The notes under the pieces are model-generated. The model made no database searches. It was not told the DNA's origin and worked only from the letters and a program-made list of their open reading frames with translations. The translations under genes were made by a program, and so were the position numbers. A stretch of 64,000 nucleotides of DNA, from positions 921-64,920 of the forward strand of contig CAZAJO010000008.1 of NCBI GenBank assembly GCA_964485575.1, written 5' to 3'. Positions 1 through 47,022 of this stretch are shown here, piece after piece (the stretch's first letter is position 1; each line of letters begins with the position of its first letter). The DNA is from an uncultured Gammaproteobacteria bacterium (GTDB lineage: Bacteria; Patescibacteriota; Microgenomatia; Levybacterales; GWA1-39-11).

Positions 1-3000
1 CAACATTTCCATTTGTCCCAAGAGTTGAAACCTGAGTCAGGTTACTTAATAAGATTTGGCCGGATCCATTTGGCGCGATGGTAAGATTTTCATTTGTCCC
101 GGTTGTGATATCTGTTGATACTCCATTGAACGTTAGAGTACCTGTTGTCGTTATGGCACCAGAACTTACTGTTCCGATATTAGTAAGGTTACCTGATGCA
201 TCAATTCTTCTGACTCCATTTGTCTGGATATCTGTGACTCCATTTATTGAAGAGGCAGAAAGTGTTGCTGTTGTACCATTGTCAACGAGTGTAAGCAAAG
301 TATTTGGTGATCCTTCAGCATCCTTTATCGTTAAGGTTCCATTGTTCCCTAATGTTGAAAGCGTAATAGTTGGTGTCGTATTTGAAAGTGTCAGGGGTGA
401 GATGCCTGATAATGTGACAGTACCTGACGCGTCAAGCGTTGTTACCCCGCTTACAGCACCGGCATTTGTGATCCCACCATTATTGTTGTTAAATCCACCG
501 GTGATTGAAGCACCCCCTGCTGATACTGTTAGACCTCCGGTACTTACCGTCAAAAGCCCACCGATAGTTTGAGCAGTTGTAAAGTTATTATTTTGGCCTT
601 TGTACGCAACATTAGATAAGGTACCGGTTGTGTTTATATTGGCGCCATTAACCTGAAGTTGAGAGAGAGCATTAATTGTGTCTACTGAAAGTGTAGCAAC
701 TGTGCCGTTGTCAACGAGAGATAACAATGTATTTGGTGAACCGGCTGAGTCTTTTATAGTAAGGGTTCCAGCTGCATCTCCTGCGCCAACGGTAACAACT
801 GGATTCGTGTTTGAAAGGATGATTGGCGTAGCAGATGAGAACGTATTCGTGTTGGTGAACGTATTTGCCTGGTTAAGATACGCTACGTTTGTGAGAGTTC
901 CAGCAGTATTTATATTAAGTCCATTAAGCTGTATAGCGGTTATCGCATTGAGAACATCAGTCTGAACAGTACCAGAAGCTGTTATATTTGTAGCGCCAGC
1001 TATTGCACCCGTGTTAGTGATTCCACCTGTGTTGTTATTTATACCTCCTGTTATGTTGGCACCTCCCGCAGTCGCTACAAACCCATTAGCAGCAGTTATT
1101 GTTCCAGTTCCGGTTGTTACGATATTGCCTGAGGTCGTCAGATTGCCATTCTCATTTATGGCAAGAGTAGCCGAACCACTTGATTGGATCTGTAAAGCGT
1201 TTTGGATCGATGCATTCGTGTCATTAATGACAAGAGCTGCAGAGCCTGTTCCGGCGTTGGTTATTGTAAATTGTCTAGAGTTGAGGTTTGCAAGAGTAAA
1301 GTCAATGTTTCCTTCATTGTCTGTTGCTGAGATAGTGTTTCCGGCCTCATAAGCTTGTTGCAACGTAACATTGTTAACGTTTGCATTACACGAGGCAATT
1401 TGATTTGAAGCATTTCGACAAAGCCCTGAAGTCCCGTTAGTGCCTAAAGTAGGTACCTGTACAAGATTACTCAAAATTATTTCTCCTGTTCCATTTGGAG
1501 CAATTGTTAGATTCTCATTTGTTCCGGTCGTGATATCTGTACTCACGCCATTGAAGGTAAGCGTTCCGGTCGTAGTTATTGCACCAGAGGATACTGTACC
1601 GATATTAGTGAGGTTGCCTGAAGCGTCTATTCTTGTTGTACCATTTGTTTGTACATTTGATGAAGCATTGACTGTCCCTACAGTCAAAGTACCAACTGTT
1701 CCATTGTCTACTAATGTCAACAATGTATTAGGGGAACCGTTTGAATCATTAATCGTTAAAGTTCCAGCCGCGTTTCCGGCTCCCAAAGTTATAACCGGGT
1801 TAGTGTTTGAGAGAACAACCGGTGTTGCTGAAGAGAACGTATTCGTGTTTGTGAAAGTATTGGCTTGATTGAGATACGCAACGTTTGTGAGAGTTCCAGC
1901 TGTGTTGATGTTAGCCCCATTGAGTTGGATTGCAGTAATGGCATTTAGGATATCCGTTTGGGTAGTACCTGAAGCAGTTATATTAGTTGCACCGGTAATT
2001 GCACCAGTATTTGTTACTCCACCATTATTGTTATCGATTCCACCAGTAATTGAAGCCCCACCGGTTGTTACTGTTAAGGCTCCCCCAATGGTCTGACCAA
2101 CGGTGAAGTTATTGTTTTGACCCTTGTAAGCAACGTTTGTGAGCGTTCCAGTTGTATTGATATTAGTACCGTTGAACAAGAATCCGGTAACAGCATTTAC
2201 GCTTCCGGTAAGAGACAAGTTACCGACAGTACCTGCATCAGTCAATGAGAGCAGGGTATTTGCATCACCATCATTTATTGTAAGCGTGCTATCAACTCCA
2301 GCAGTTCCCAAAATTGCTGTTGGAGCGGCATTGGTAAGTGTTAACGGAGATGCTCCAGAAAGAGTGACTGTCCCTGAAGCGGTGATATTGGTCGCACCAG
2401 CAATAGCACCAGTATTTGTGATTCCACCGGTGTTATTGTTGATACCACCTGTTATGGATGCACCACCTGATGATACAGTCAAAAGGCCAGCGATTGTTTG
2501 ACCGACAGTGAAGTTATTGTTCTGACCCTTATAAGCAACATTTGAGAGGGTACCCGTTGTGTTGATATTTGTTCCGTTCAACAAGAATCCGGAAACTGCA
2601 TTTATTGTTCCTGAAAGCGATAGGTTTCCAACAGTCCCAGCATCTGTTAATGTCAGAAGAGTATTTGGTGAACCTTCAGCATCTTTTATTGTCAGTACCC
2701 CGTTGTTTCCGATTGTTGCAAGAGTAACAATCGGCGCGTTGTCAGAAAGTGTTACCGGATTTGCATTCGAGAATATATTATTTTGTGAGAAAGTATTTTG
2801 TTGATTCTGATAAGCGACGTTTGTGAGTGTACCAGCTGTATTGATATCTGTCCCGTTCAATTGTATGACAGACGTTGCATTGACTGTTGCTCCCTGAATC
2901 GTTCCTGAAGCAGTTATGTTGGTTGCACCAGTGATCGCCCCCGTGTTTGAGATACCACCAGTATTGTTATTAATTCCACCGGTTATTGATGCTCCACCTG

Positions 3001-15000: not shown

Positions 15001-18000
15001 AGGCTCCCGTTGATGGGGTTGTTGCACCAATTGCAGTACTATTTATACCTGTTGCGGTTGCTGTGAAGTTGCCTGAAGTGATCAGTAAATTGTTGACTCC
15101 GGCATTGATAGATGATGCAGACAAACCTGAAAGACTGAGTACCCCGGAAGTTGCGGTAAGATTGATTGCCCCGGTCGTCAGGGTCAACCCATTTGATGCT
15201 GTCAAAAGACCAGCAGATGTTATAGTACCGGTTCCGGTTGTTGCTATATTTCCACTTGTTGTAAGATTTCCAAGCTCATTTATGGTCAAAGTTGCAGATC
15301 CGGAGGACTGAATCTCAAGAGCAGTATTTGTATTCTCGTTATTGTCGTTGATGATAAATGCAGAAGCTGTCCCTTGGTTTGTGAGAGTCAATGAGGTCGT
15401 CTGATCTTGACCCAATGTAAAGTCAATACTTCTTCCAGGAGTCGTTGTTATAGAGTTCCCAGTGTTGTAAGCAGCCTGCAGTCCAAATGGTGCACCGTTA
15501 CAGTACGCAAGGTTGTTACTTACGTCCAAACAAAGGGTGTTCCCATTCTGAGTCTGTAGACCATTGATCTGGATTCTCTCATTAGATGTTGTATTGAACA
15601 CTACGTTGTTACCGGTTGATGGTGTAAATACAGCAGATCCTGAAGCATCAAATGAATTTCCATTTGTGATAATCACATTTCCGTTGAAAGTAGAGATCCC
15701 AGCAACATCTAGAGTACTTCCAAGAGTAGTAGCTCCAGTCCCAACGCTAAAGGTATTGCTACCGGTGACCGTTGTATTCCCGTTCAACGAAACGTTACCG
15801 GTACCCGTGGAGAACGTGTATGCTCCAACTTGGGTAATATTATTATTGAAAGTTCCAACTCCATTGACAGTCAATGCACCTCCAAGAGTCGTAAGACCGG
15901 TTCCTACGGTAAATGTATTTGCTCCCGTTACTGATGTATTTCCATTCAGAAGAGTCAGTGCATTAATGTTGAGGTTCCCAATCCCATTTAATGGGCTTAG
16001 TGTGATTTCACCTGTTGTGTCACCACCGATGGTGAGTGCACTAAGCTCTGTGGTCTGAATAGAACGTGGTGCTCCTGCAAGTGTCAAATTACCAGAGATA
16101 GATGCATTACTGGTCGTCGTAAGCAAAGTGAAATTACCGGTTGAAGGAGTAGTTACTCCAATTGCAGTACCGTTGATACCCGTTGCGGTAGTATTGAAAT
16201 TATTTGATGTGAAAGTCAAATTGTTTCCTCCGGTGTTGATACTTGATGCAGAAAGCCCAGAAAGATTTAATGTTCCCGAAGTTGCGGTTAGATTGAGTGC
16301 TCCTGTTGTTAATGTCAGTCCGTTTGATGCTGTCAAAAGACCTGCAGAGGTTATTGTTCCAGTGCCGGTTGTAGAAATATTGCCACTAGTTGTTAGATTT
16401 CCAAGCTCATTGATAGTGAGTGTAGCAGATCCCGAGGACTGGATCTCAAGGGACGTATTGGTATTTGCATTGTTATCGTTAATGATAAATGCACTAGCTG
16501 TACCAAGGTTTGTTAGTGTGAGTGAAGTTGTCTGATCCTGACCCAATGTGAATGCCAAATTTCGTCCAGGAGTTGTCGTTATCGTATTTCCTGTATTATA
16601 TGCAGCTTGAAGTCCGAAAGGTGCTCCGTTACAGTACGCAAGGTTGTTACTTACGTCAAGACATAGAGTATTACCATTCTGAGTCTGTAGACCATTTATC
16701 TGTATCCTCTCAGTACCAGTAGTATTGAATACTACATTGTTCCCAGACGAAGGAGCAAAAACAGCAGCGCCTGAAGCGTTGAATGAATTACCTGTTGTTA
16801 TAAATACGTTACTGTTAAATGTTGCAGTGCCCGCAACATCAAGAGTGCTTCCAAGAGTTGTAGCACCGGTTCCGACAGTAAAGGTATTGGATCCGGTAAC
16901 TGAAGTGTTTCCATTGAGTGAAACATTACCAGTTCCTGTTGAGAATGTGCCTGTCCCTGTTTGGGAAATGTTGTTGGTAAATGTGCCGACTCCATTAACT
17001 GTTAGTGCTCCCCCGAGTGTTGTAAGCCCGGTTCCAACAGTTAAAGTGTTCGTACCTGTAACTGATGTATTACCGTTTAGAGTGATTGCGCCAGTTCCAG
17101 TTGTGAATGTGCTAGCACCTACCTGGCTTATGTTGTCATTAAATGTGGATACACCTAAGACATTCAATGTACCGTTGAATGCTGAATTTCCATTGACCGT
17201 AAAGTTACCTGCACCTGAAAGAGGGGATACCACAATATTTCCTGTCGTATTTCCACCAATTGTAAGAGTGTTGTTCTCGGTTGTCTGGATCGAGCGGGGA
17301 GCACCGGCAAGAGTTAGATCTCCAGAGAATGATGCAGTACCAGTTGTTGTTAGATTTGTGAAATTACCCGTCGATGGAGTAGTAGCACCGATGGCAGTGT
17401 TGTTTATGCCAGTAGCAGTGACGGTAAAATTACCGGATCCGATGAGTAAATTATTTCCTCCAAACTGTAGTGATGAAGCAGATAGACCAGACAAATTGAG
17501 TGCTCCTGATGTACCGGTGATATTAACAGCACCAGTCGTTACGCTGAGTCCGTTTGACGCTGTCAATAGCGCATTAGATGTTATAGTGCCTGTTCCGGTA
17601 GTTGCTATATTTCCACTCGTTGTAAGATTTCCAAGCTCGTTTATAGACAAAGTTGCAGATCCCGAAGACTGGATTTCAAGAGATGTATTAGTATTGGCAT
17701 TATTGTCATTGATGATAAATGCTGAAGCAGTACCCAGATTAGTCAGGGTAAGAGATGTTGTCTGATCTTGACCCAATGTAAATGCAAGGTCACGACCCGG
17801 AGTTGTCGTTATCGTGTTTCCGGTGTTGTATGCTGCTTGAAGTCCAAATGGAGCACCGTTACAGTATGCAAGATTATTGCTTACATCCAAACAAAGGGTG
17901 TTCCCATTCTGAGTCTGTAACCCATTGATTTGAATTCTTTCATTTGAGGATGTATTAAATACGACATTATTGCCGGTAGAAGGTGTAAATACAGCTGATC

Positions 18001-21000
18001 CTGAAGCATTGAATGAGTTACCAGTTGTTACAAATACGTTGCCATTAAATGTTGCTGTACTAGCAACTGTAAGCGTACTGCCCAACGTTGTCGCACCAGT
18101 TCCGACTGAGAACGTATTGCTTCCTGTGACAGATGTATTTCCATTCAAAGAAACTGTTCCAGTCCCTGTTGAGAATGTACCGGTGCCAACTTGGCTAATA
18201 TTGTTGTTGAATGTTGCAGCCCCTTGTACACTCAAAAGGCCAGTGATGTCGGTGTTACCAGCAATCTGCACAAGTCCAGTCGTATTACCACCGATAGTCA
18301 GAGTGTTAAAGTCGGTCGTCTGAATTGAGCGTGGGGCACCTGCAAGAGTCAGATTCCCAGAGAATGAGGCATTCCCCGTAGTTGTGAGTGTAGTGAAATT
18401 ACCGGTGGAAGGGGTAGTGGCTCCTATTGCAGTATTGTTGATTCCGGTCGCAGTTGTATTGAAGTTTGATGAGGTGAATGTCAGAGCATTTGCACCTGAA
18501 TCAAATGTAGACGCACCAAGTCCAGTAAGAACAATTGCGCCTGAAGAACCAGTTATGTTTACAGCTCCAGCTGTGACTGTAAGGCCATTTGAAGCAGTTA
18601 ATAATCCGTTAGATGTTATTGTTCCCCCTGAGGTTGTGAGGATATTGTCAATAGTTGAAAGAGTTCCATTCTCACTTATTGTAAGCGTAGCCGAACCACT
18701 ACTTTGAATAGACAGTGCATTTTGGATAGAAGCATTGGTGTCATTGATAACAAATGCTGCACTTCCGGTTCCGGCATTGGTGAGCAGGAACTGACGTGAT
18801 GAAAGATCAGCAAGTGTAAAGTCAATATTCCCATGAAGATCGTTAGCAACTATGGTATTTCCTGAATTGTATGCCTGCTGTAGGGTAACATTAAGAGCGT
18901 TTGATGAACAAATAGAAAGCTCGTTTGCCCCATTTCGACAAACAACTGTCGCACCAACGGTTCCTGAAAGATTTGGAATCCTTGTTATAGTATTTAGTAC
19001 TATTTGTCCCGTTCCGTCAGGTGAAAGAGTAAGATCCTCATTTGAATTGGTTGTGATATCTGTTGCAGCACCTGAGAATATGAGCCCTGTAGATCCTATC
19101 GATTTATTTGAAAGAGTCTGGGTCTGATTAGCAAAAATGAATGTGTCATCTGCAGTGAGTGCTGGAATGGTGGCAAATCTTGACGCAGAGGGAGCAAGAG
19201 ATGTGATTGTCGTAGTATTAGTCGTTCCAAGTACTACCTGGTTTGTTGTGTTTGTGAGATTTAGAGACGCAAATGTTGGCGATGATGTCGCAGCGATACT
19301 TTGAGGTAATGAAAGAGAAATAGTACCAGACCCATTAGCCACGAGAACTTGATTTGAAGTACCCGTAATAGTATTCAAACTAAACCCTGACCCATTCCCT
19401 ATGAGAAGAGCTCCATTTGGAGCAGCAGAACTATCCACCCCGGTTCCACCTCTCAAAGGTGCGAGTTGTTGTTCTGAGGCAAGAACACCTGATGCGTTAT
19501 TGATGACAACTCCAGCTGTTGTAAACGGAGATATGGTGACAGATGTATTTGCCGTAACTGTTGTGAATGCTGCAGTTGACGGAGTAGTGGCTCCAATAGC
19601 AGTGCTATTGATTCCAGTTGCCGTGACGTTTAAGTTTGCTGCTCCGATGAGTAAATTATTTCCCCCAAACTGTAGAGATGAGGCAGATAGACCTGAAAGA
19701 CTGAGGGCTCCTGACGTGCCTGTGATATTGACTGCCCCTGTCGTTACGGTAAATCCATTTTGTGCTGTAAGAAGTCCTGCGGATGTTATGGCACCGGTAC
19801 CAGTAGTCAGGATATTTCCGCTAGTCGAAAGGTTACCAACAGACGTTAAGTTTCCGTTCTCAGAGATAGTAAGAGTTGCGCTACCACTTGATTGAGCTTG
19901 GAATACATCCTGAAGTGAGGCATTCGTGTCGTTTATGACAAAAGCAGCTGACCCAGTCCCTGCATTTGTAAGCAAAAATTGACGGGATGAAAGGTCAGCA
20001 AGAGTAATGTCGATATTACCTTCACCATCGGTTGCGCTAATAGTGTTTCCTGCTTCGTAAGCCAGTTGGAGCGAAATATTAGCAGCATTTGCAGGACACT
20101 CAGTTATCTCGTTTGTTATATCATCACGGCACAAGGTGGTCGCGCTTAGTCCAGCAGCTGGAAGATTAAGTAGTTTGGTTATATTTGAAAGGACGATCTG
20201 ACCCGTTCCATCAGGGGTAATAGTAAGGTCTTGATTCGATACGGTTGTGATATCGGTCCCTACACCATTAAAGGTTAGTGACCCTGTCGCTGTGATTGCT
20301 CCCGTTGACAAGCTATTGCTTGTGATCGAACCAGTTGTTATAAGATTTCCATTCTCAGAAATCGTGAGCGTTGCTGAACCGCTACTTTGAATAGATAGAG
20401 CATTTTGGATAGAGGCATTCGTGTCGTTTATGACAAATGCTGCTGACCCAGTACCGGCATTGGTAAGGAGGAATTGGCGAGATGAAAGGTCAGCAAGAGT
20501 GAAATCGATATTACCTTCACCATCGGTTGCGCTTATAGTGTTTCCTGCTTCGTATGCCAGTTGAAGCGAAATATTAGCAGCATTTGCCGGACACTCAGTG
20601 ATTTCATGAGAAGAATCATCACGGCAAAGTGTTGTTCCACTTACACCTGCTAATGGTAAGTTCTCTAATCGTGCAATATTTGAAAGTACGATTTGACCGG
20701 TTCCATTAGGTGTAAGCGTAAGATCTTCGTTACTGACCGTAATCAGGTCATTTGCAGCTCCAGAGAACACGAGTCCTGATGCTCCAATAGTTTTGTTAGT
20801 CAACGTTTGCGTTTGTGCCGCAAAAATAAAGGTGTCATCAAACGTGAGCGCTGGAAGTGTTGCAATACGTGGAGCACCCGGTGCTGGAGAATTTATTGTT
20901 GTAGTGTTTATTGTTCCTAATGACAATTGGTTTGTCGTTGCAGCAAGTCCGAGATTTCCTGCATATGAAAGTGTCGCAGCGTTGTCTCCCGCATTATTCA

Positions 21001-24000
21001 CGAATGCCAATTGGTATGTCGGTGCAGTTGTTAAGATCTGATTTTGGAGACTGAATGTCAGGTTATTTGACGAAGCCCCATTCCAGTAGGATCCTTGTAA
21101 TGACAATAGGTTTGAATTATTCAATGTTGCTCCACTCGTTGATGTGGCAAGTCTCAAAAGAGAGAGGGTATCAACTCCTGTCTGGTCGCCGACATTAAAA
21201 GCTGTCAGAGAAGTTATCGTCGTACCATCGTCTGTAAAATTAGAATCCCCGATATTTGATCCCGTTACGGTAAACTTGGCAAGTCTATTAAGAGTTCCAG
21301 CTCCTCCGACAACTCCACCGGCTCCAGCACAGTTTCCGACAGTAAGACAGACTGTCCCGTCATAGTCTGGAATACTTATTGTCCTCAAAGTTCCAGTTGT
21401 TATTTGACTAAGATCAAATAAGAATTGCTTTGTATTATCACCGTCATCCTGGAATGTGATTGAATTATCTGTAAGTAGTTTGTTTGTTAGAGTCTGGCTT
21501 TGGTTGGCAAAGATAAATGTGTCATTTGCACTAAGTCCTGGGATCGTAGCAATCCTTGAAGCTGCTGGCGCAACCGAGGAGATAGTCGTTGTGTTCCCAG
21601 TTCCCAAAACCAATTGATTTGTTGCCGCAAGGGAAGTAAGAACTCCTGCAGTCGTTAGATTCCCGTTCTCATTAATGGTAAGAGTAGCAGAGCCACTGCT
21701 TTGAATAGATAGGGCATTTTGTACGGACGCATTTGTATCATTTATGACAAATGCAGCACTTCCTGTACCTGCGTTTGTGAGCAGGAACTGTCGTGATGAA
21801 AGATCTGCAAGAGTTAGTGAAATATCACCAAACGAGTTAGAAGCGCTGATTGTGTTTCCAGCTTCGTACGCTAGCTGAAGGGAAATGTTTGCTGCATTTG
21901 CTGGACATTCGGTGACCTGATGAGATAAATCATCGCGGCAAAGTGTCGTTGCGGCAACACCTGCGACTGGCAGGTTCTCAAGACGCGTGATATTGGAAAG
22001 AACAATCTGGCCGGTTCCATTTGGAGTAATGGTAAAGTCCTCGTTGGCAAGCGTTGAGATGTCTGTTGCAGCACCAGAGAAAACAAGACCAGTCGTACCA
22101 ATGGTCTTATTGGTGAGGGTTTGAGTTTGCTGCGCGAAAATAAATGTATCATCGACGGTAAGTGCTGGTAATGTTGCAATTCGTGGGGCAGAAGGCGCAA
22201 CCGAACTTATTGTTGTCGTGTTTCCAGATCCCAAAACCAATTGATTGGTTGCCGCTTGCGCTGTCAAAGTTGTTGCTGAAAGGATAGACCCGGTTCCGGT
22301 GGTTAGGATATTTCCCGACGTTGATAGGAGCCCATTTTCATTGATGGTAAGAGTTGCGCTACCACTGCTTTGGATAACGAGTGAATTATTGACAGAACCG
22401 CTCGTATCATTGATTACAAAAGCACTTGCTGTTCCGACGTTTGTTAGAAGGAGGGAAGTCGAAAGACCTGATCCTAATGTAAAGTCGATATTCCTATTTG
22501 CTGTTGTAGTTATCGTATTTCCTGAATCATAAGCAAGCTGCAATGAGACGTTGCTAGCATTTGCCGGACATTGTGTAATCTCGTTACTGACGTTATCACG
22601 ACAAAGGGTAGTTGCGGCAACTCCGGCAGCAGGAAGACTACCAAGTCTTACTGTATTCGAAAGAACAATTTGCCCAATCCCTGAAGCAGACAAAGTCAGG
22701 TCTTCATTGCTTGCGGTCGTTATGTCTGTGGCAGCACCTGAAAAGATAAGACCTGTAGATCCGATTGTCTTGTTACTTAATGTCTGCGTTTCGTTTGCAA
22801 ATACAAAAGTGTCTGACGCATTTAAAGCAGGTATCGTTGCTGTCCTTGGGACTGACTGTGAGTTGGAGTTTATAACAAGCGTATTACCGGCAGCACCTAG
22901 CGTAAGCTGATTACTTGTGTTTGAAAGTGTTTGCGATGCGAATGTCGGTGACGAAGTAGCGGCAATATCTTGAGGCGTAGAAAGAACAATTGTTCCACTA
23001 CCGTTCACAACATTTACCTGATTTGATGTACCTGAAATGTAATTAAGACTAAGTCCGGTACCATTGCCTATTAAAATCTGCCCAGGCAAAGCTGCTGATG
23101 TATCAAGGCCTGTTCCTCCTCGAGCCGGATTGAGTTGAGCGATAGTTGAGAAAACTCCCGAAGAATTATTGATTACAACTCCATCTGTTATGAAGCTTGA
23201 AAGAGTAAAAGCACCATTTGCCGACAGGTTAGTAAAAGCACCCGTTGAAGGGGTAGTACTACCCACAGCAGTACTGTTGATTCCGGTAGCTGTTGTGTTG
23301 AGGTTTGCTGATGTAATGAGTAAGTTATTTACTCCAGTTGATATACTTGAACCAGATAGGCCTGACAAATTAAGCGTACCTGCAGTAGCGGTAAGGTTAA
23401 GAGTGCCGGTTGTTAATGTAAGACCGTTTGATGCAGTAAGTGTTCCGGCTGAAGTAATAGTACCTGCTCCGGTTGTTAAGATATTTCCACTCGTTGACAA
23501 AATACCGTTCTCGTTGATGGTAAGTGTCGTTGAACCACCTGATTGCACTTCCAATGCATTCTGGATAGCAGCATTTGTATCATTGATAACAAGTGCTGAA
23601 GAGGCGGTTCCTGCATTTGTTAGGGTTAATGCACGGGCACTATCAGATGCCAACGTAAAGTCTAAGTTGCCGATAGAATCTGAAACGCTTATCGTGTTTC
23701 CGGAATTGTAAGCAAGTTGCAGTGAAATGCCACCAGCGTTTGCTGGACATTGAGTTATCTCGTTGCTGACGTTATCGCGACAAAGAGTTGTAGCACTTAC
23801 CCCAGGCCCTGGAAGATTTAAAAGACGGGTAGTGTTGGAAAGAACGATTTGCCCTGTCCCATTTGGAGTAATGGTGAAGTCTTCATTGGCAAGCGTTGAA
23901 ACATCAGTCGCTGCTCCTGAAAAGGTAAGGCCGGTCGCACCGATAGTCTTGTTGGAAAGAGTCTGTGTTTCATTGGCAAAGACAAATGTGTCATCCGCAG

Positions 24001-26113
24001 AAAGTGCTGGTAGTGTCGCAATTCTGGCAGCTCCCGGAGCAGGAGAGGTAATAGTTGTCGTGTTACCGGTCCCCAAGACTATCTGGTTTGTAACAGCCTG
24101 AGCAGTCAATGTTGTTGCAGAGACAATTGTGCCGGCACCAGTCGTTAGGATATTGCCGGATGTTGATAAATTATCTCCAGCAGTTGTTGGGGCGATTGTA
24201 GAGGTTCCATTGTTGCGGGTGAAAAATCCGACAGTACCCGAAGTATTGGTTGTTGTTATATTTCCAGAACATACAAGATTGCCAGTTGCGTCATCAATTG
24301 TACATCCCGTTGTGCCTGATCCCCCTGCAAGAGAAACATCCCCATCAGACGCAATTAGGAGCGCTTGCGCTCCTGTAGTGGTGTTGTATATCGTGAATTG
24401 TGACGTATCCACATTCACGGAATAATCATCCTGACCCACATCACTATCCACGAAAAATACCGAAGGATCAGAATTGGCTATAGTGATATCTCCGCCTGCT
24501 GTAGTTGTACCGGTGAGATAAAGATTTCGATAACGCCTGAGCGCAGAACCGAGATCGTAGGTATCATCAGCACTTGGTCCGATACTTCCAGCAACCTCAA
24601 GCCTAAAAGGATTACCATCAGCATCGAGGTCATCTGGTGCAACACCAATACCGAGACGGCCATTCGGAATCGTGACGAGTCCCGCTCCAATCGTCGCAGT
24701 GTCTAGGGCAGAACCGATATTGATGATATCAGCGGCAGTGTTGTCCGTTGCAATATTTATGACGTTTCCAGCCGTACCTGTGCCGACATTGATGATTTTT
24801 GCATTGTTTCCGGTGCCAAGATTGACTGTGCCGGTCGTGCCACTGTCAAGCGTCAAAGAGCTAGCTCCAGCAGAGAGCACTGACCCTGCACCTGTAAAAC
24901 TAAGGATTGTACCGCCTAGGTTAAAGTTGTTAGCAACGCCTGTTACTGATGTCAAGGTAGAAGATAATTGGATGTTGGCTTCTCCTGATGGACTTTCTGT
25001 GACATCAAAATCTCCACCAAGAAAATCCAGAGCATTTATCACATTCGAGACGACTACATCATTCTCTTTGATAGTTGCAACAGCAAAAGATGTGATATTA
25101 GTCCAAGAAGGAATGCCTGATGGGTCAACTGTTAAAAACTGTCCAGTCGTTCCGATCGGCAGCCCTGCAAGAACGTCAGTGGAAGCTGCATAGATGATGT
25201 CACCGGTCGTGTATGTAGAAAGTCCAGTTCCACCTACACCAACACTTATAAGTCCCGTCTTTATTGCTTCTCCGGCTACCGATCCTCCAGACCCAATTGT
25301 TAAAGTATTTGCAATATCTGGATCAGTGAGACATGAAGAACAATGTCCACGTGCAACCAAAGTTTCGAGTGTCGTTATGTCGGAAATGGTGAGATCAGTT
25401 ATCTGTATGCCATCACCCGCAAGAAGCTCTATATCACCTGTCTGACCCTGGAGTGAAGTAACCCCACTGGCATCCACAGAAATCGTGGGGGACTGTGGAT
25501 CTCCACTCAAAGTCACATTGTCACCAGCGGTTAGACTGTAGACTACATTTGGAGCTGTGATATTCCCTTTGAAAAGACTCGTACCCTCAACGAGAAGATT
25601 TTTCTTTATCGTTAGGTTCTCACGAGCAACAACCGGCAGTCCAAAAATCACACTACCGGTTAGCTTCAATTTGCTTGTTTGGGTTCCAAGTACTTCCGGT
25701 GTTTCGGTTGCGACATCTGTAGATTTAATTATTTTTGGAGCTGAATTCTTTATTAGCTGTTGCCTTGCAAAAACACCAGTAACGAAAAGTGCTGAGGCTA
25801 AAACACCGAGAACCAGGGTTTTCTTTGTTGGTTTGAGGTATGCGAATTGAAAGAATAGCCTTGTAGCCTCAAAAAGGAGGCTCATACTGTTGATAAATGA
25901 CTGAAATGGGCTTATAGTTTTATCAGCTGATGGAACAGCATCCACCTTAGCTTTGCTAGCTTCTACGAGCTTGGTAAGATCATCTTGCCTGTACTGAAAT
26001 TCTCCTTTTTCGTTGGTAAATGGGGTAAGTGAGTGGCGGTCGCAGAGATACACAAGGGTTTCTACTGAAACACCAAGCTGACGAGCTGCCTGTTTTAACG
26101 TTAATAATTTCAT
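1..26113 (-). CDS. giant repetitive cell-surface protein (3' end cut by window edge; >8,700 codons here): N-terminal HTH_17/excisionase-like motif, one TM helix, then >8,500 aa of Thr/Gly/Asn/Ser/Ala-rich tandem modules
   Basis: ATG = revcomp of cat at 26111-26113. I hand-translated the minus strand at 26113-25680, 24690-24480, 22633-22553, 17110-17042, 13681-13622 and 3667-3437; every piece is open and in one frame (plus-strand triplets starting at positions = 2 mod 3). The ORF track lists no minus-strand ORF in that frame; the track omits ORFs with no in-window stop, as with ppa at 63492. The plus strand is cut into ~90 short ORFs with PVV/VPV-rich translations, as expected for antisense of ACC/GGT/AAC-rich coding DNA. 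N-terminus: MKLLTLKQAARQLGVSVETLVYLCDRHSLTPFTNEKGEFQYRQDDLTKL. TM: TLVLGVLASALFVTGVFA. Confidence 0.8.
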   Translation of the reverse strand, partial: MKLLTLKQAARQLGVSVETLVYLCDRHSLTPFTNEKGEFQYRQDDLTKLVEASKAKVDAVPSADKTISPFQSFINSMSLLFEATRLFFQFAYLKPTKKTLVLGVLASALFVTGVFARQQLIKNSAPKIIKSTDVATETPEVLGTQTSKLKLTGSVIFGLPVVARENLTIKKNLLVEGTSLFKGNITAPNVVYSLTAGDNVTLSGDPQSPTISVDASGVTSLQGQTGDIELLAGDGIQITDLTISDITTLETLVARGHCSSCLTDPDIANTLTIGSGGSVAGEAIKTGLISVGVGGTGLSTYTTGDIIYAASTDVLAGLPIGTTGQFLTVDPSGIPSWTNITSFAVATIKENDVVVSNVINALDFLGGDFDVTESPSGEANIQLSSTLTSVTGVANNFNLGGTILSFTGAGSVLSAGASSLTLDSGTTGTVNLGTGNNAKIINVGTGTAGNVINIATDNTAADIINIGSALDTATIGAGLVTIPNGRLGIGVAPDDLDADGNPFRLEVAGSIGPSADDTYDLGSALRRYRNLYLTGTTTAGGDITIANSDPSVFFVDSDVGQDDYSVNVDTSQFTIYNTTTGAQALLIASDGDVSLAGGSGTTGCTIDDATGNLVCSGNITTTNTSGTVGFFTRNNGTSTIAPTTAGDNLSTSGNILTTGAGTIVSATTLTAQAVTNQIVLGTGNTTTITSPAPGAARIATLPALSADDTFVFANETQTLSNKTIGATGLTFSGAATDVSTLANEDFTITPNGTGQIVLSNTTRLLNLPGPGVSATTLCRDNVSNEITQCPANAGGISLQLAYNSGNTISVSDSIGNLDFTLASDSARALTLTNAGTASSALVINDTNAAIQNALEVQSGGSTTLTINENGILSTSGNILTTGAGTITSAGTLTASNGLTLTTGTLNLTATAGTLNLSGLSGSSISTGVNNLLITSANLNTTATGINSTAVGSTTPSTGAFTNLSANGAFTLSSFITDGVVINNSSGVFSTIAQLNPARGGTGLDTSAALPGQILIGNGTGLSLNYISGTSNQVNVVNGSGTIVLSTPQDIAATSSPTFASQTLSNTSNQLTLGAAGNTLVINSNSQSVPRTATIPALNASDTFVFANETQTLSNKTIGSTGLIFSGAATDITTASNEDLTLSASGIGQIVLSNTVRLGSLPAAGVAATTLCRDNVSNEITQCPANASNVSLQLAYDSGNTITTTANRNIDFTLGSGLSTSLLLTNVGTASAFVINDTSGSVNNSLVIQSSGSATLTINENGLLSTSGNILTTGTGSILSATTLTAQAATNQLVLGSGNTTTISSVAPSAPRIATLPALTVDDTFIFAQQTQTLTNKTIGTTGLVFSGAATDISTLANEDFTITPNGTGQIVLSNITRLENLPVAGVAATTLCRDDLSHQVTECPANAANISLQLAYEAGNTISASNSFGDISLTLADLSSRQFLLTNAGTGSAAFVINDTNASVQNALSIQSSGSATLTINENGNLTTAGVLTSLAATNQLVLGTGNTTTISSVAPAASRIATIPGLSANDTFIFANQSQTLTNKLLTDNSITFQDDGDNTKQFLFDLSQITTGTLRTISIPDYDGTVCLTVGNCAGAGGVVGGAGTLNRLAKFTVTGSNIGDSNFTDDGTTITSLTAFNVGDQTGVDTLSLLRLATSTSGATLNNSNLLSLQGSYWNGASSNNLTFSLQNQILTTAPTYQLAFVNNAGDNAATLSYAGNLGLAATTNQLSLGTINTTTINSPAPGAPRIATLPALTFDDTFIFAAQTQTLTNKTIGASGLVFSGAANDLITVSNEDLTLTPNGTGQIVLSNIARLENLPLAGVSGTTLCRDDSSHEITECPANAANISLQLAYEAGNTISATDGEGNIDFTLADLSSRQFLLTNAGTGSAAFVINDTNASIQNALSIQSSGSATLTISENGNLITTGSITSNSLSTGAITATGSLTFNGVGTDITTVSNQDLTITPDGTGQIVLSNITKLLNLPAAGLSATTLCRDDITNEITECPANAANISLQLAYEAGNTISATDGEGNIDITLADLSSRQFLLTNAGTGSAAFVINDTNASLQDVFQAQSSGSATLTISENGNLTSVGNLSTSGNILTTGTGAITSAGLLTAQNGFTVTTGAVNITGTSGALSLSGLSASSLQFGGNNLLIGAANLNVTATGINSTAIGATTPSTAAFTTVTANTSVTISPFTTAGVVINNASGVLASEQQLAPLRGGTGVDSSAAPNGALLIGNGSGFSLNTITGTSNQVLVANGSGTISLSLPQSIAATSSPTFASLNLTNTTNQVVLGTTNTTTITSLAPSASRFATIPALTADDTFIFANQTQTLSNKSIGSTGLIFSGAATDITTNSNEDLTLSPDGTGQIVLNTITRIPNLSGTVGATVVCRNGANELSICSSNALNVTLQQAYNSGNTIVANDLHGNIDFTLADLSSRQFLLTNAGTGSAAFVINDTNASIQNALSIQSSGSATLTISENGTLSTIDNILTTSGGTITSNGLLTASNGLTVTAGAVNITGSSGAIVLTGLGASTFDSGANALTFTSSNFNTTATGINNTAIGATTPSTGNFTTLTTTGNASFSGNLTLAGAPRSIQTTDFNTLTIGGNTTGLVQIAGNTDITGLLSVQGAATFNNNISQVGTGTFSTGTGTVSLNGNTSVTGSNTFSVGTGATTLGSTLTVASTATFNGNVFVTTGNSFNASGSAVFTPSTGNNVVFNTSSNERIQINGLQTQNGNTLCLDVSNNLAYCNGAPFGLQAAYNTGNTITTTPGRDLAFTLGQDQTTSLTLTNLGTASAFIINDNNANTNTSLEIQSSGSATLSINELGNLTTSGNIATTGTGTITSNALLTASNGLSVTTGAVNITGTSGALNLSGLSASSLQFGGNNLLIGSGNFTVTATGINNTAIGATTPSTGNFTNLTTTGTASFSGDLTLAGAPRSIQTTENNTLTIGGNTTGNIVVSPLSGAGNFTVNGNSAFNGTLNVLGVSTFNDNISQVGASTFTTGTGAITLNGNTSVTGTNTLTVGTGLTTLGGALTVNGVGTFTNNISQTGTGTFSTGTGNVSLNGNTSVTGSNTFTVGTGATTLGSTLDVAGTATFNSNVFITTGNSFNASGAAVFAPSSGNNVVFNTTGTERIQINGLQTQNGNTLCLDVSNNLAYCNGAPFGLQAAYNTGNTITTTPGRNLAFTLGQDQTTSLTLTNLGTASAFIINDNNANTNTSLEIQSSGSATLTINELGNLTTSGNISTTGTGTITSAGLLTASNGLTLTTGALNLTATSGTLNLSGLSASSINTGGNNLTFTSNNFNTTATGINGTAIGVTTPSTGNFTLLTTTSNASISGNLTLAGAPRSIQTTELSALTIGGDTTGEITLSPLNGIGNLNINALTLLNGNTSVTGANTFTVGTGLTTLGGALTVNGVGTFNNNITQVGAYTFSTGTGNVSLNGNTTVTGSNTFSVGTGATTLGSTLDVAGISTFNGNVIITNGNSFDASGSAVFTPSTGNNVVFNTTSNERIQINGLQTQNGNTLCLDVSNNLAYCNGAPFGLQAAYNTGNSITTTPGRSIDFTLGQDQTTSLTLTNQGTASAFIINDNNENTNTALEIQSSGSATLTINELGNLTTSGNIATTGTGTITSAGLLTASNGLTLTTGAINLTATSGVLSLSGLSASSINAGVNNLLITSGNFTATATGINSTAIGATTPSTGAFTTLSSTGTTNLGTSGASDVNIATTGTGNVAIGNATGTFAVTSNGGLNVTTLGALTGVISLDTIGVSATDLTFAGVGTISATGSNSLTLDTGTTGDINLGIGNSAKTIYIGTGTGGNVINIATNDTLADIVNIGSLLDTINLVGSVTANNFNSSGVTVTGGTINGTSVGATVRSSGAFTTLAANSTVLIENLTTSSGTALCIDSFDNIIKCSIGSGTGTLQSSYNNGNTILTNDGRNIAFTLAPGLNLPTSFTLENQSTASAFILNDTSAGGGGTFFDLQSNGASTLKVSEAGVIYLAGDNTSDITTLVGGTDITINPASSTVDATGGNLRLVAGTSTAGGSTGGSVTINAGAGASANGSINIGTLSTGNTVNIGTDNTSPDFINIGSGTDTVNLVGAVTANNLSSSNAVITGGSIDNTPIGNTTRSSGKFTTLAANSTVTIENLVTVVGSPLCTNGDDEVVLCDVGSSAGTLQSSYDNGNTILTNSGRNIDFTLASGLNAATSLTLTNEGTASAFIINDNNAAPNQVALEIQSGGNRRLTIDESGNASTSGYISSSNSIQTIGSGTITSANGLFVTAGGASINGGINNNTGGITNTGSITGATNITASGTSQGDILNAVTSIQTNGTQRVDASGNLVNIGTIASGAITTTGTLTFSGVSTDITTVSNQDLTLLANGTGKIVLNDTVGIPILAGVQGFTVLCQNATNELSQCDPTAFGVTLQSAYNGGNTILTTAGKNIDFTLDSGLTTQLRLTNAGSANAFVINDSNVGSGGIVFEVQSASVSALTISELGTISTSGNIATTGTGTITSAGALTVSAGGASITGGINNNNGGITNTGAITGATNITASGTIQGDTINALTAFQLNGTSINVGGTLSNVAYLDQANVFTNTNTFSSAAPLTLSNSAPDITLATAGNNGVLRIRDAEGSPNTLLALTDAGTVGNLAISGTINAVSGFQLNGTNINTTGTLTNVAYKGQNNNFTVGQTIGGALTVTTGGASITGGINNNTGGITNTGAITGATNITASGTTQTDILNAITAIQLNGVNINTGGTLSNVAYLDTANTFTLGQTINTGGITVVAGGANISGGINNNNGGITNTGAIAGATTIAASGVVTLSGASPLTLSNTTPIITLGAGNAAGTLTIKDSNGTPNTLLTLVDNGTVATLTVGTINATSALQLNGANINTANTLTNVAYKNQSNTFTAGQIITTGGLAIQAGGLDVTGGINNNAGGITNAGAISGATSIDASGVVTLSNAAPLTLSDSAPVITLATAGTNGVLTIKDAEGAPNTLLTLTDTGTTGNLSVTGSINAGTGILLGGTNINTTGTLTNVAYKGQNNNFTVGQTIGGALTVTTGGASITGGINNNTGGITNTGAITGATNITASGTIQGDIINAITALQLNGTDINTAGILTNVAYKNQSNTFTAAQIISSGGLSVTGGINNNNGGITNTGAIGSATTIDASGLVTLSSSTPLALTATTSAITVAAAGSNGTLTIRDGEGSPNTLLTLTDTGTVGNLSVTGTINAVGGYLLNGTNINTTGTLTNVAYKGQNNNFTVGQTIGGALTVTTGGASITGGINNNAGGITSTGAISGVTDITASGVVTLSGASPLTLSNAAPVLTLATTGVDGVLTIADAQGSPNTLLTLTDNGTNATLAVANINATTGFLLNGTNINVGTTLSNVAYLDQANLFAIGQTINTGGITINAGGANITGGINNNTGGITNTGAITGATNITASGTIQGATINATSVFQLNGTSINTTGTLTNVAYKGQNNNFTTAQNIAGTVTITGAATDITTGSNEDLTLVANGSGVINLNDTIQIPTLASPDGSTALCRNAGDFLSACAPNSNGVTLQLAYDAGNTILTTSGRNIDFTLYDENTDSGTPTSFTLMNAGSANAFVINDVRTGSGGIAFEIQSASASALTITELGTITTSGNIATTGTGTITSAGALTVSAGGASITGGINNNTGGITNAGAISGATTIGASGLVTLSAASPLTFSNTNPIVTLGAGNANGVLTIRDSAGSPNTLLTLTDAGTVGNLSVTGTINAGTGYLLNGTNINTAGTLTNVAYLNQANIFTAGQTITTGGLAIQAGGADITGGINNNTGGITNTGAITGATNITASGTTQTDILNAITAIQLNGTNINTAGTLSNVAYKNQSNTFTAAQIISAGGLSVVGGINNNNGGIINTASISGATTIDASGVVTLSGANPLALTNGTPNISLATAGVDGVLTIKDAEGSPNTLLTLTDAGTVGNLSVTGTINAANGFLLGGTNINTTGTLSNVAYKGQDNNFTVGQTIGGALTVTTGGASITGGINNNTGGITNTGAISGATTIGASGLVTLSAGSPLTFSNTNPIVTLGAANANGTFTIKDSAGVPNTLLTLTDAGSVGNLSVTGSVNAGTTLQIGGVDINTAGTLTNVAYQNQSNTFTALQTITTGGLTISADGASITGGINNNTGGITNTGAITGATNITASGTIQGATINGTSVIQLNGVDINTAGTLTNVAYQNQANTFTALQTISSGGLTISAGGANITGGIDNNVGGITNTGAIAGATTIAASGTVTLSSGSPLTLSNTTPIITLGAGNAAGVLTIRDSNGAPNTLLTLTDNGTTATLAVANINATTAFLLNGTSINTTGTLSNVAYKGQDNNFTVGQTIGGALTVTTGGASITGGINNNAGGITNTGAITGATNITASGTIEGATLNATNNIQTNGVTRLDVIGNLTNINTISSGAITTSGVLTFNGVPTDITTGPNENLTLAPNGTGEILLNNYVQVATLSATTGLTTVCRNASNQLSTCAANASAVTLQQAYDAGNTILTTSGRNIDFTLDSGLSTQFTLTNAGSANAFVINDTNAGTGGVALDVQSAGVSKLSISELGNISTSGNITTTATGTITSAGALTVNSGGAYLKGGINNNSGGIINTGSITGITNLTASGTATLTGSSPLTLSNANPNIRLATAGTDGTLTISDAEGSPNTLLTLTDNGTVGTLSVGTVNASTGFTLGGTDINTTGTLTNVAYKGQNNNFTVGQTIGGLLTVTTGGITVSAGGASINGGINNNAGGITSTGAIAGATTIAASGTVTLSSAAPITLTNSAPDITLGAGDANGTLSIKDSAGSPNTLLTLVDNGTDATLTVGTVNALSALQINGANINTTGTLTNVAYKGQNNNFTVGQTIAGLLTVSSGGASITGGINNNTGGITNTGAITGATNITASGTIQGATLNATSVIQLAGTDINTAGTLTNVAYQNQANTFTALQTITTGGLTINAGGANITGGIANNAGGITGTGAIAGATTIDASGTVTLSSASPLTFSNTNPIVTLGAGNAAGVLTIRDSNGAPNTLLTLTDNGTTATLAVANINATTAFLLNGTSINTTGTLSNVAYKGQDNNFTVGQTIGGALTVTTGGASITGGINNNTGGITSAGAISGATTIDASGTVTLSSASPLTLSNNAPVLTLATAGNNGVFTIKDAEVSPNTLLTLTDNGTNGTLTVANVNATTALQFNGTNINTTGTLSNVAYKGQNNNFTVGQTIGGLLTVSAGGANITGGINNNAGGITNTGAVSGATNITASGTIQGGTLDATTSVQTSGTDRIDASGNLVNIGTISSGAITTTGTLTFDGVSTDITTGTNEDLTLTPNGTGQIVLSNLTQVPTLGTNGTIGLCRNALNQIATCNAATATLQTAYDNGNTITTTTGRNIAFTLAGGLGSPTSFTLTNAGTANAFILNDTAAGTGGIAINVKSNGTSTLTIDELGNLTTSGNIVTTGTGAITAAGLLSATNGASISAGLDNNLGGITNAGAITGATNITASGTIEGDIINAVSAFQLNGTSINTAGTLTNVAYKNQNNNFTVGQTIAGLLTVSTGGASITGGINNNTGGLTNAGAISGATTIAASGTVTLSGVSPLTLSNASPIVTLATQGTNGVLTIRDAELSPNNLLTLTDYGDGGSLSVSSISATTSLQLNGVDINTAGTLTNVAYRNQNNNFTVGQTIAGLLTVSSGGASITGGINNNTGGISNTGAITGATNITASGTIQGATVNATSVIQLNGTDINTAGTLTNVAYQNQQNTFSQNNIFSNANPVTLSDNAPIVTLATIGNNGVLTIKDAEGSPNTLLTLTDAGTVGNLSLSGTINAVSGFLLNGTNINTTGTLSNVAYKGQNNNFTVGQTIAGLLTVSSGGASITGGINNNTGGITNTGAIAGATNITASGTVTLSGASPLTLTNAAPTAILGTAGVDSTLTINDGDANTLLSLTDAGTVGNLSLTGSVNAVTGFLFNGTNINTTGTLTNVAYKGQNNNFTVGQTIGGALTVTTGGASITGGIDNNNGGVTNTGAITGATNITASGTTQTDILNAITAIQLNGANINTAGTLTNVAYLNQANTFTNTNTFSSATPVVLSNTNPVITLGAGNAAGTLTINDSNGSPNTLLTLVDNGTVGTLTVGTVNASSNVQTNGTTRIDASGNLTNIGTVSSGAITTTGTLTFNGVSTDITTGTNENLTIAPNGTGEIILSNLVQVPTLGTNGTSGLCRNASNQIASCNANVNNVTLQQAYEAGNTISATDNEGNIDFTLANLNSRQFTITNAGTGSAALVINDTNASIQNALQIQSSGSATLAINENGNLTTSGNIVTTGTGTITAANGFVATAGGANITGGINNNTGGITNTGAIAGATNITASGTVQTDVLNAITAIQLNGLNINTAGTLTNVAYLNQANTFTNTNTFSSATPIILSNTNPVVTVGAGDAAGTLTIKDSAGSPNTLLSLVDNGTVATLSVDTINALSQLQVNGANINTTGTLSNVAYKGQNNNFTTAQTIGGLLTVSTGGLTVSAGGASITGGFNNNNGGITNAGAVSGVTTLDASGTVTLSGISPLTLSNTTPTITLSTLGNNGTLTIKDAEGSPNTLLTLVDNGTTATLSASSINGVTDIQTNGVRRIDASGNLTNIGTVSSGAITTTGTLTFNGVSTDITTGTNENLTIAPNGSGQILLSNLTQVSTLGTNGNV
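100..13350 (-). repeat. family-A tandem coding modules inside the giant gene (~400 nt = ~133 aa each; higher-order ~2.2-kb near-identical copies)
   Basis: Antisense shadow ORFs recur at 393-420-nt spacing (2139/2559, 4467/4872, 5613/6006, 7758/8160, 11487/11952/12462) with near-identical translations. The copies at 4872-5225 and 7098-7445 are almost identical, 2226 nt apart. Hand-translating the minus strand at 3667-3437 gives ...LTNVAYKNQNNNFTVGQTIAGLLTVSTGGASITGGINNNTGGLTNAGAISGATTIAASGTVTLSG... Confidence 0.75.
15330..18420 (-). repeat. family-B modules inside the giant gene (~1.16-1.25 kb period) made of short NGNTSVTG-x-NTF-x-VGTG sub-repeats
   Basis: Shadow ORFs at 15564, 16725 and 17970 share the same long translation, 1161 and 1245 nt apart. 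Minus-strand hand translation at 17110-17042 gives TFTTGTGAITLNGNTSVTGTNTL. Confidence 0.7.
18800..24120 (-). repeat. family-C modules inside the giant gene (~1.21 kb period) carrying a Cys-pair motif TTLCRD(N/D)xSxEITxCPANA
   Basis: Shadow ORFs at 18852, 20793(partial), 22551 and 23763 are mutually similar. Minus-strand hand translation at 22633-22553 gives PAAGVAATTLCRDNVSNEITQCPANAS. Confidence 0.7.
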
Positions 26114-26600
26114 TGACGAGTTTTGACTATCGCGTATATATAAAACGGGTGTATATCTAATGTATCTATTTTCGATAAAACTAGTCAACGTATGTTAATG
26201 ATAGGTACTGTAACAAACTGTACTGTTTTTCATAAAAAAATATATAACGTGTAGAAGCGGTTAAAAAGCGAAAAAAAATGATGATGCATTATGTTATAGA
26301 AAGTAGTAGTCATCCTAAACCGTATCAAATCTTAAAAAACAGAATATATTTCACAAAAACTTTTCACGCACATTAATCTTATAGTAACTATTCAGCAAAT
26401 TTTAATATTTTTATTTTCTCAAAATTGCAGAAAAAAATATTTCATTTTTCGCAAAATTAAAATTGACTTTTCACAGAATTGCGATATTTGAAGCTAATTA
26501 TTTTACGGTATTATAAATTGCTTTGATATAACAGAATAAAATGCATTATTGAGTTTATTAGTAGTACATAATGTAATTTAGCTTGGATTCAAGGCCAAAT

Positions 26601-26873: not shown

Positions 26874-26883
26874 AAGATCCTAT

Positions 26884-29287
<2,404 letters not shown>

Positions 29288-29290
29288 ATG

Positions 29291-47019: not shown

Positions 47020-47022
47020 ATA

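Follow-up and report, generated by a model that had tools for sequence, protein, structure and literature searches.

A minus-strand reading frame of more than 26 kb lies at the left edge of a 64,000-nucleotide stretch of DNA from an uncultured bacterium (GenBank assembly GCA_964485575.1, contig CAZAJO010000008.1, positions 921 to 64,920; this whole stretch is referred to here as the window). It raises the question of whether so long a frame is a real gene and, if so, what its product does. The best named relatives of the GyrB encoded in the window (93%) are Candidatus Levybacteria, of the Microgenomates group of Patescibacteria, and the source organism is placed there and not among the Saccharibacteria. 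The genomes of Patescibacteria measure about one megabase, of which one gene of 30 to 56 kb would occupy a few percent, and a life in attachment to other cells is assumed for these bacteria. To our knowledge, how members other than the Saccharibacteria find and hold their hosts is largely unknown. We consider it reasonably probable that the frame is part of a real chromosomal gene of Levybacteria whose product is a giant cell-surface fibre, anchored at its N terminus, very long and probably trimeric.

In order to establish whether the frame is intact, it was translated in full. From the ATG at 26113 it runs on the minus strand for 8,704 codons with no stop (2..26113; translation under genetic codes 11, 4, and 25) and leaves the window at position 2, position 1 being part of a further codon. 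The local base composition predicts approximately 485 stops by chance, and the probability of finding none is approximately 1e-217. Each of the other five frames of the same stretch contains 152 to 857 stops, and the longest open run among them is 360 codons. Upstream of the ATG the frame closes at a distance of 27 codons, and the start of the protein, MKLLTLKQAAR, is shared with its orthologues. The initial annotation had reported a single minus-strand open reading frame (ORF) from this ATG to the window edge on the basis of hand translation at several sites, and had named stops between those sites as one result that would overturn it. The full frame contains none, and the report is confirmed.

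Comparison with an orthologue indicated that the frame is under selection as a protein. An independent assembly from a related species, contig CAZDED010000003.1 (locus L006), matches the window in collinear order, at ~80% DNA identity, across the atp operon and on to codon ~3,700 of the giant gene. Over 3,678 aligned residues the two proteins are 91.5% identical, and synonymous sites are near saturation (pS 0.64). dN/dS was 0.042 overall and 0.02 to 0.05 in eight of nine 500-column blocks, the ninth being too saturated at synonymous sites for a ratio. The sole large internal gap in the pairwise alignment corresponds to an extra 410-aa module copy in the window protein (aa ~2927 to 3336; 16106..17335, minus strand), which is absent from the orthologue and is seen at the DNA level as a diagonal shift of 1,150 nt. 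A second gap, of 212 columns, lies at the end of the orthologue. Further along the gene, metagenome contigs L066, L067, and L068, which are more distant than L006, are collinear with aa ~3,980 to 8,048 at ~64% DNA identity. Because there are no stops where ~485 are expected, dN/dS is ~0.04, and module order is reproduced in independent assemblies, the comparisons indicate that the frame is a translated gene under strong purifying selection and not a chance ORF, a pseudogene, or a mis-join.

The repetitive nature of the gene nevertheless called for an analysis of its internal repeats. The DNA repeat families within it are only 60 to 88% identical, and Tandem Repeats Finder reported no array in the giant gene because the repeat units are long and diverged. 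The longest exact repeat in the visible gene is 110 nt (4905-5014 and 7125-7234, the copies lying 2,220 nt apart), and no 127-mer is repeated there. A copy-number error could affect one 2.2-kb unit at most. The 110-nt pair is the one place where an assembly with short k could gain or lose a unit.

Lengths of the orthologous giant genes were taken from gene-table calls. The product of CAZDED010000003.1 is at least 10,311 aa and still touches the contig end. Three ENA contigs carry closer relatives of one another, in each of which the gene starts at locus position 12300. In L125 (ERZ27268712 k119_127960; found in two samples) it was called at 18,686 aa inside a contig of 117,850 bp, in L126 (ERZ27240680 k141_106736) it was called at 9,929 aa inside a contig of 134,437 bp, and in L127 (ERZ27268724 k119_336391) it is at least 12,757 aa and is cut by the contig end. 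The AtpD sequences of the three loci do not differ. Over their first 3,077 aa the giant proteins share 99.4 to 100% identity among themselves and 91% with the window protein. The difference between 9,929 and 18,686 aa could be real variation in repeat copy number, a premature stop, or assembly collapse. Other metagenome fragments contain further open stretches of 3,821 to 5,231 codons that are cut at both ends. The source contig, at 67,970 bp, extends beyond the window by at most 3,970 bases, both ends summed, and an exact-match search of genome and metagenome contigs with the left end of the window gave no match. The window holds the 5' portion of the gene, 8,704 of what are probably 10,000 to 19,000 codons. 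The view that the gene is cut by the window edge and is larger when complete is upheld by these orthologues, which are longer; the window gene's own end lies outside the window.

To determine how widely the gene is distributed, its N-terminal region was used as a query. A word-indexed search with the first 700 aa returned fragments only, one of them named [quoted passage not shown] With aa 1 to 650 as the query, an exhaustive HMMER search returned 1,098 proteins at E<=1e-3, 43 of them at E<=1e-30. The set includes distant relatives 2,121 to 5,023 aa long, most of which begin with a helix-turn-helix followed by a transmembrane segment. A scan with the conserved core (alignment A4, described below), restricted to one genome per species, found 58 loci, whose record titles include Saccharimonadales, Levybacteria, Amesbacteria, Woesebacteria, Curtissbacteria, Roizmanbacteria, and "Patescibacteria group." Counts over 34 loci given here refer to the best 34 of these 58. 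In 33/34 loci the ORF has not closed where the contig or the 10-kb flank ends, and it was still open after ~3,700 codons in all 11 loci with a full 10 kb of downstream flank. atpD-atpC lies just upstream on the same strand in 30/34 loci, from Microgenomates and Saccharimonadales, and also in further loci that were inspected. Dozens of records titled "uncultured Gammaproteobacteria bacterium" (e.g., L006-L010, L013-L016, and L023-L026) carry the family gene; these titles appear to be wrong or placeholders, since the gene content and the closest named relatives are those of Patescibacteria. Some bins contain two family contigs (L014 and L016 in CAZPUU01, L008 and L041 in CAZEEU01, L047 and L050 in CAZDDM01, and L058 and L062 in CAZMIE01), which may represent paralogues or co-binned strains.

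Analysis of the N terminus revealed a small folded domain followed by the only membrane segment of the protein. Residues 3 to 52 (25958..26107, minus strand) resemble a winged helix-turn-helix of the MerR/excisionase type, presumably cytoplasmic. The Pfam HTH_17 match to these residues (E=4.5e-4, 20.9 bits) is under the gathering score of 27, and the N terminus also matched a PHROG of MerR-like regulators (E=1.4e-4); relatives exceed Pfam's MerR threshold. AlphaFold predicted the order strand-helix-helix-hairpin-helix with a pLDDT of 63 to 75, the sole part of the models with usable confidence. A linker of ~45 residues leads to the transmembrane-like segment at aa 98 to 116 (KTLVLGVLASALFVTGVFA; 25766..25822, minus strand), the only 19-residue window in 8,704 aa with a mean hydropathy of >1.6; an AlphaFold helix is predicted at aa 98 to 121. 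No signal peptide was found in the window protein, the hydrophobic segment sitting behind a folded domain, and its likely role is that of a signal-anchor. The helix-turn-helix motif is kept in 33/34 loci, L040 lacking it, and in the same number a hydrophobic segment lies behind it at aa 93 to 180; in L040 this segment is at aa 29.

The region that follows, which is expected to be the first to lie outside the cell, is the conserved core of the family (aa 140 to 345; 25079..25696, minus strand). It contains the motif ITAPNVVY, an invariant CxxC (C258/C261), and the pattern GGTG..Y..GD..Y...L..LP.G..GQ.L....P.W. An alignment of 11 sequences (A4) has a mean column identity of 66% with 52 invariant columns. 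The profile of this region weakly matched the baseplate spike gp45 of phage Mu (E=1.3e-3 over 36 aa).

The visible protein is compositionally monotonous. Threonine makes up 18%, glycine 13%, asparagine 11.5%, and alanine 10%, whereas methionine, tryptophan, and histidine occur only 3, 2, and 5 times, respectively, in the 8,704 residues. Of the 39 cysteines, 38 are arranged in 19 pairs, one of which is the conserved CxxC. The body is a mosaic of two module types, designated A and B. The 16 A modules are ~185 aa each, contain a C-x9-10-C pair, and follow the pattern ...TDITT..NEDLT..PNGTG.I.L...LC-x9-10-C...LQxAYxxGNTI..., in which LQxAYxxGNTI is the signature motif. The 28 B units, of 78 to 85 or ~137 aa, occur from aa ~4,300 onward with the pattern GGINNNTGGITNTGAITGATNITASG ... 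NVAYKGQNNNFT. On the basis of the motif map, cysteine pairs, and module alignments, the proximal body (aa ~650 to 4524; 12542..24166, minus strand) contains 12 of the 16 A modules, with spacers of differing length between them. The distal body (aa 4525 to 8704; 2..12541, minus strand) is organized as four to five super-repeats, recognized from 28 GGINNN anchors and their spacing. Each super-repeat is 864 to 1,132 aa long and consists of one A module and then B units (GGINNNTGGITNTGAITGATNITASG...LNGTNINTTGTLTNVAYKGQNNNFT). The super-repeats are 59 to 68% identical to the first sequence of their alignment (A3), the B units have a mean column identity of 78% (A5), and the module order of the distal body is collinear with that of L066, L067, and L068.

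The C-terminal end of the family was examined in relatives. Metagenome contig L070 contains a 3' end of 1,919 aa, of which the first 518 aa are B and A modules 50 to 64% identical to the window protein. The remaining ~1,400 residues comprise a Thr/Gly/Ser-rich stretch, an Fn3-like segment (read from the sequence only), a domain with the motif ADYAEYF...PGVAMKA, a coiled coil, and a beta-rich terminal domain ending NWWIVN. Most complete distant relatives share this type of ending, among them P0108, P0180, P0202, and P0222, which end in the same C-terminal region; the C termini of the relatives read ...NWWI(I/V)N and have no hydrophobic tail. The best PDB matches to a profile of the ADYAEYF...PGxAMK domain (A7) were to the pre-neck appendage gp12 of phage phi29 (6qz9, E=0.012; 3gqh, E=0.013), the alignment beginning at DFAEYFE, with which the 3gqh C-terminal-domain chain starts; a tailspike chaperone domain (28nb) came next. 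Among proteins that share the N-terminal core motifs of the giant, Peptidase_S74 was found above the Pfam threshold in P0146 (56 bits), P0093 (45 bits), P0103 (39 bits), and P0027 (36 bits). A fifth such protein, P0138, has a weak Pfam match to Peptidase_G2 (19 bits) and, in its distal part, the binding-type domains SH3_3 and BNR. Each of these similarities, like that of the core to gp45, is weak singly, and they all point to one class, that of trimeric phage fibres and spikes with a C-terminal intramolecular chaperone.

Taken as a fibre, the protein would work in the following way. The transmembrane helix would act as a signal-anchor, giving an N-in/C-out topology with the helix-turn-helix in the cytoplasm, and the Thr/Gly/Asn-rich body of >8,500 residues would be exported to form an extended, beta-rich fibre, probably as a trimer. 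Folding would be nucleated from the unseen C-terminal end by an intramolecular chaperone of the Peptidase_S74 type or the Peptidase_G2 type of phi29 gp12. This domain would be followed by the coiled coil and then by the small terminal beta domain ending NWWI(I/V)N. The distal end may carry binding modules, as suggested by SH3_3 and BNR in P0138. Phage tail fibres have a length of roughly 0.05 to 0.06 nm per residue; at that rate, 10,000 to 19,000 residues would give a fibre of 0.5 to 1 micrometre, which is longer than the cell. With such a fibre the presumed episymbiont could reach out to a second surface or hold on to it, the likeliest being that of its host cell. The helix-turn-helix might provide a DNA-binding output or simply be a folded cytoplasmic cap. 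That the product is a giant surface protein, as the initial annotation proposed, is consistent with its anatomy (no signal peptide, one transmembrane segment, the long Thr/Gly/Asn-rich body, and 19 cysteine pairs) and with the modules it has in common with tail-fibre-type proteins. We infer a role in host contact, and the further proposal that the protein is the main host-interaction organelle has the same inferred standing.

Several observations weigh against a host-contact fibre of phage type. The body gave no usable match in Pfam, NCBIfam, or PHROGs, nor among PDB sequences, which were searched with the body and with the A and B modules by single-sequence and profile methods, and the adhesin and beta-helix domains for which a search had been suggested at the outset were not found as families in Pfam, NCBIfam, or PHROGs. 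(Sub-threshold matches to DUF4251, Cu_amine_oxidN1, AnkUBD, and FtsX_actino were treated as noise and were not used.) AlphaFold monomer models are all-beta but of low confidence (a super-repeat was modelled with a pLDDT of 43 and the N-terminal 650 aa with one of 37), which limits what they say of fold and oligomeric state. The C-terminal region of L070 had no match in Pfam or PHROG, and the similarities to gp12/G2 and gp45 are weak (E of 1e-2 to 1e-3). Moreover, the argument from chaperone domains rests wholly on relatives, because the C terminus of the window gene is outside the window. Finally, the giant protein is nearly as slow to evolve as the subunits of the ATP synthase (91.5% identity, compared with 95.9% for AtpD and 93.3% for AtpC), which is unusual for a host-recognition protein and suits a structural role no less than it does host recognition.

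That structural role could be played by an envelope component, such as a sheath, an S-layer-like coat, or a cell-cell tether, which would be anchored in the same way and serve a mechanical or protective function independent of a host. Very high conservation for a surface protein (dN/dS of 0.04 and an identity not far below that of AtpD), an unchanging housekeeping location next to the atp operon in genomes labelled Levybacteria, Amesbacteria, Woesebacteria, Saccharimonadales, and others, a monotonous composition, and the lack of any recognizable binding domain in the visible 8,704 aa all agree with this. We nevertheless consider it rather unlikely, as the relatives carry distal SH3_3, BNR, and phage-fibre chaperone domains, module copy number varies between close relatives, and a single N-terminal anchor with 10,000 to 19,000 residues suits a long filament better than a coat. 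The helix-turn-helix suggests a different possibility, that of a membrane-tethered transcription factor or contact sensor, in which events at the giant ectodomain would control gene expression and the helix-turn-helix would bind DNA either in place, in a ToxR-like manner, or after proteolytic release. The domain is kept in 33/34 loci and in distant relatives that pass Pfam's MerR threshold, it is under purifying selection equal to that on the rest of the protein (dN/dS of 0.042 for alignment columns 0 to 500), and it precedes the sole transmembrane helix, on the cytoplasmic side. Against this, the protein lacks the MerR dimerization helix and effector domain, neither a target site nor a regulated gene is known, and a sensor needs no 10,000 or more residues, so that sensing could only be an added function; we regard this explanation as improbable. 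A further reading, in which a fibre domesticated from phage tail-fibre parts would be both tether and signalling device and would "reach, hold and report," seems to us quite unlikely. Under it, the MerR-type helix-turn-helix would bind DNA while still at the membrane or once freed from it, and contact or tension at the tip of a micrometre-long filament would be passed to gene expression in an episymbiont that is poor in regulators.

Two further explanations were weighed. In one, the ORF was produced or lengthened by wrongly joined repeats and no single protein is translated from it, or the gene is a decaying pseudogene. The gene is repetitive and breaks most short-read assemblies, it contains the exact 110-nt repeat pair 2,220 nt apart, near-identical relatives were called at 9,929 and 18,686 aa, and three more distant relatives have in-frame stops. 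These observations are outweighed by the lack of any stop against ~485 expected, a dN/dS of 0.04 over 3,678 residues, the lack of repeated 127-mers, the collinearity of both halves with independent assemblies, and a frame that is open to the locus end in 33/34 loci. The sequence data largely refute this explanation, which we consider very improbable. In the other, the gene is a tail-fibre gene of a prophage or phage-derived element, as could be suggested by the modules shared with Peptidase_S74 proteins named "tail fiber domain-containing" and by the weak matches to phage Mu gp45 and phi29 gp12. However, no phage genes flank it, its neighbours being the ATP synthase operon, PBP1A, TyrRS, RecG, NusB, and RNase III. 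Its position is kept across several Patescibacteria lineages, an N-terminal helix-turn-helix with a membrane anchor is unlike a virion protein, and a PHROGs search yielded only the helix-turn-helix match. A phage gene is, in our judgment, extremely improbable.

We compared the proposed N-terminally anchored fibre with known systems. Like phage tail fibres and tailspikes (endosialidase, the T5 L-shaped fibre, and phi29 gp12), the giant is long, repetitive, rich in Thr, Gly, and Asn, and by prediction beta-rich; relatives sharing its core motifs end in Peptidase_S74, and the family C-terminal region best, if weakly, matches the gp12 auto-chaperone. Unlike them, its gene is chromosomal, lies in a housekeeping context, and is 10 to 20 times longer. 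It also has an N-terminal transmembrane anchor behind a helix-turn-helix, and the family adds a coiled coil and an extra terminal domain after the chaperone-like domain. With MerR-family regulators it appears to share the N-terminal winged helix-turn-helix of the MerR/excisionase type, but in place of a dimerization helix and effector-binding domain it has an anchor and thousands of presumably extracellular residues. Giant adhesins secreted by type I systems (LapA, SiiE, and ice-binding adhesins) are not supported as a model, since no Ig-like, cadherin, or VCBS repeats were found in Pfam or NCBIfam at E<=0.01 over all 8,704 aa. Nor are two-partner-secretion (TPS) haemagglutinins or CdiA, as Pfam gave no TPS domain or FHA-type repeats and the N terminus is a helix-turn-helix and transmembrane helix. 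Unlike wall-anchored proteins of the Ebh/LPXTG type, the window protein has no signal peptide, and the C termini of its relatives have no hydrophobic tail.

Surface proteins of 1,392 to 4,163 aa with recognized adhesion domains have been described from Vampirococcus lugosii and Absconditicoccaceae (PMC8080830 and PMC13059738); fibronectin type III occurs in the proteins of both studies, and PKD, integrin, and DUF11 occur in those of PMC8080830. The giant resembles these candidate phyla radiation (CPR) proteins in being the longest in ultra-small, presumably episymbiotic bacteria, in its predicted membrane or surface location, and in its proposed role in attachment. It differs in its length (called at 9,929 to 18,686 aa), in having no recognized adhesion domain in the visible part, in its probable cytoplasmic helix-turn-helix, and in belonging to Microgenomates and Saccharimonadales. 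West-Roberts et al. (bioRxiv 10.1101/2023.11.21.568195) define "large" genes as those encoding at least 10,000 aa and "giant" genes as those encoding at least 30,000 aa; the phyla they list as rich in genes of at least 10,000 aa are Omnitrophota, other PVC, Actinobacteriota, Myxococcota, and Margulisbacteria, and Patescibacteria are not listed. Proteins of >40,000 residues have been reported only from Omnitrophota and Oscillospiraceae. In the window 8,704 aa are visible, and orthologues 91% identical to them are at least 10,311, at least 12,757, and 18,686 aa, with one at 9,929 aa. Through orthologues only, the protein probably belongs to the same size class as the "large" genes, and like them it comes from a small genome, is mostly extracellular by prediction, and is often fragmented in assemblies. 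Unlike the Omnitrophota giants, which have many enzymatic domains and many predicted transmembrane helices, the window protein has one transmembrane segment and only repeats.

A literature search found no published description of the family, although its coverage was incomplete and this is absence of evidence only. Giant surface proteins of ultra-small bacteria are already known. What we take to be undescribed is the architecture, in which phage-fibre-like modules lie between a helix-turn-helix with its anchor and a chaperone-type C terminus, and the size class appears to be new for Patescibacteria. The family seems to be assembled from parts of phage tail fibres, with a DNA-binding-type domain and a membrane anchor fastening them to the cell. 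It would bring a new lineage into the small set of bacteria that have proteins of at least 10,000 residues. Once recognized, the family is a concrete candidate for a surface apparatus of Patescibacteria. It has been nearly invisible in public data because assemblies break inside the gene and the fragments receive names such as "MerR family transcriptional regulator," "beta strand repeat-containing protein," and "hypothetical protein." One example is P0005 (GCA_035479535.1, DATIIO010000027.1), a stop-truncated piece of 1,220 aa to which NCBI gives the first of these names. The name is based on ~50 N-terminal residues and describes about 1% of the protein.

Truncation of this kind was traced to single in-frame stops, after which homology resumes in the same frame, in three distant relatives. 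The stops are TGA in L002 (13661-13663) and L003 (11549-11551) and TAA in L005, where it is codon 927 of a gene starting at 2383. They account for database proteins of 516 to 1,220 aa that are listed as complete, and could reflect sequencing error, strain-level knockouts, phase variation, or read-through. An alternative genetic code was considered for the in-frame TGA codons and rejected, since TGA ends ordinary genes in the window and in L003. It is further excluded by the TAA of the third relative and by the alignment of the TGA positions with different residues. A separate contig, L004 (ENA ERZ25039461 contig_104736), has at least 15 kb of short ORFs on the same strand in all three frames (585-15673), the first being of the MerR_1 type; the pattern suggests a homologous giant gene split by frameshifts, which a long-read assembly that was not polished might explain.

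Directly upstream of the giant gene and on the same strand are the ATP synthase genes atpH-A-G-D-C (26601..31461, minus strand; assigned with Pfam). The giant gene and atpC are separated by an AT-rich intergenic spacer of 487 nt (26114..26600) that showed no terminator-like site. A consensus scan found a promoter-like site, TTGACT-18-TACATT (26159..26188, minus strand), ending 46 nt upstream of the ATG; it was the only one, compared with a mean of 4.5 in shuffled sequence, and alone is not evidence of a promoter. The spacer also contains several T7-T8 homopolymer runs, at which slipped-strand switching of expression is conceivable.

The other genes of the window, in which no tRNA or Rfam elements were found, encode PBP1A (37612-39975), three NUDIX hydrolases flanking it (36721-37622 and 40005-40478), TyrRS, RecG, NusB, RNase III, TrmD, a type IV pilus cluster, and GyrB. 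The pilus cluster (46363-60804) includes PilM (47565-48590), a PilX-like pseudopilin (48587-49468), a prepilin peptidase (52594-53355), PilB (56782-58527), PilT (58530-59597), and PilC (59602-60804). Within it lies a homologue of GT-C/PMT-like O-mannosyltransferases (53369-55393), which could glycosylate pilins or the Ser/Thr-rich giant protein. Directly upstream of atpH is an ORF of 246 aa (31427-32167, minus strand) with no Pfam match. Counterparts of 244 to 246 aa occupy the corresponding position before atpH in L123-L134, and the product is possibly a divergent membrane subunit of the ATP synthase.

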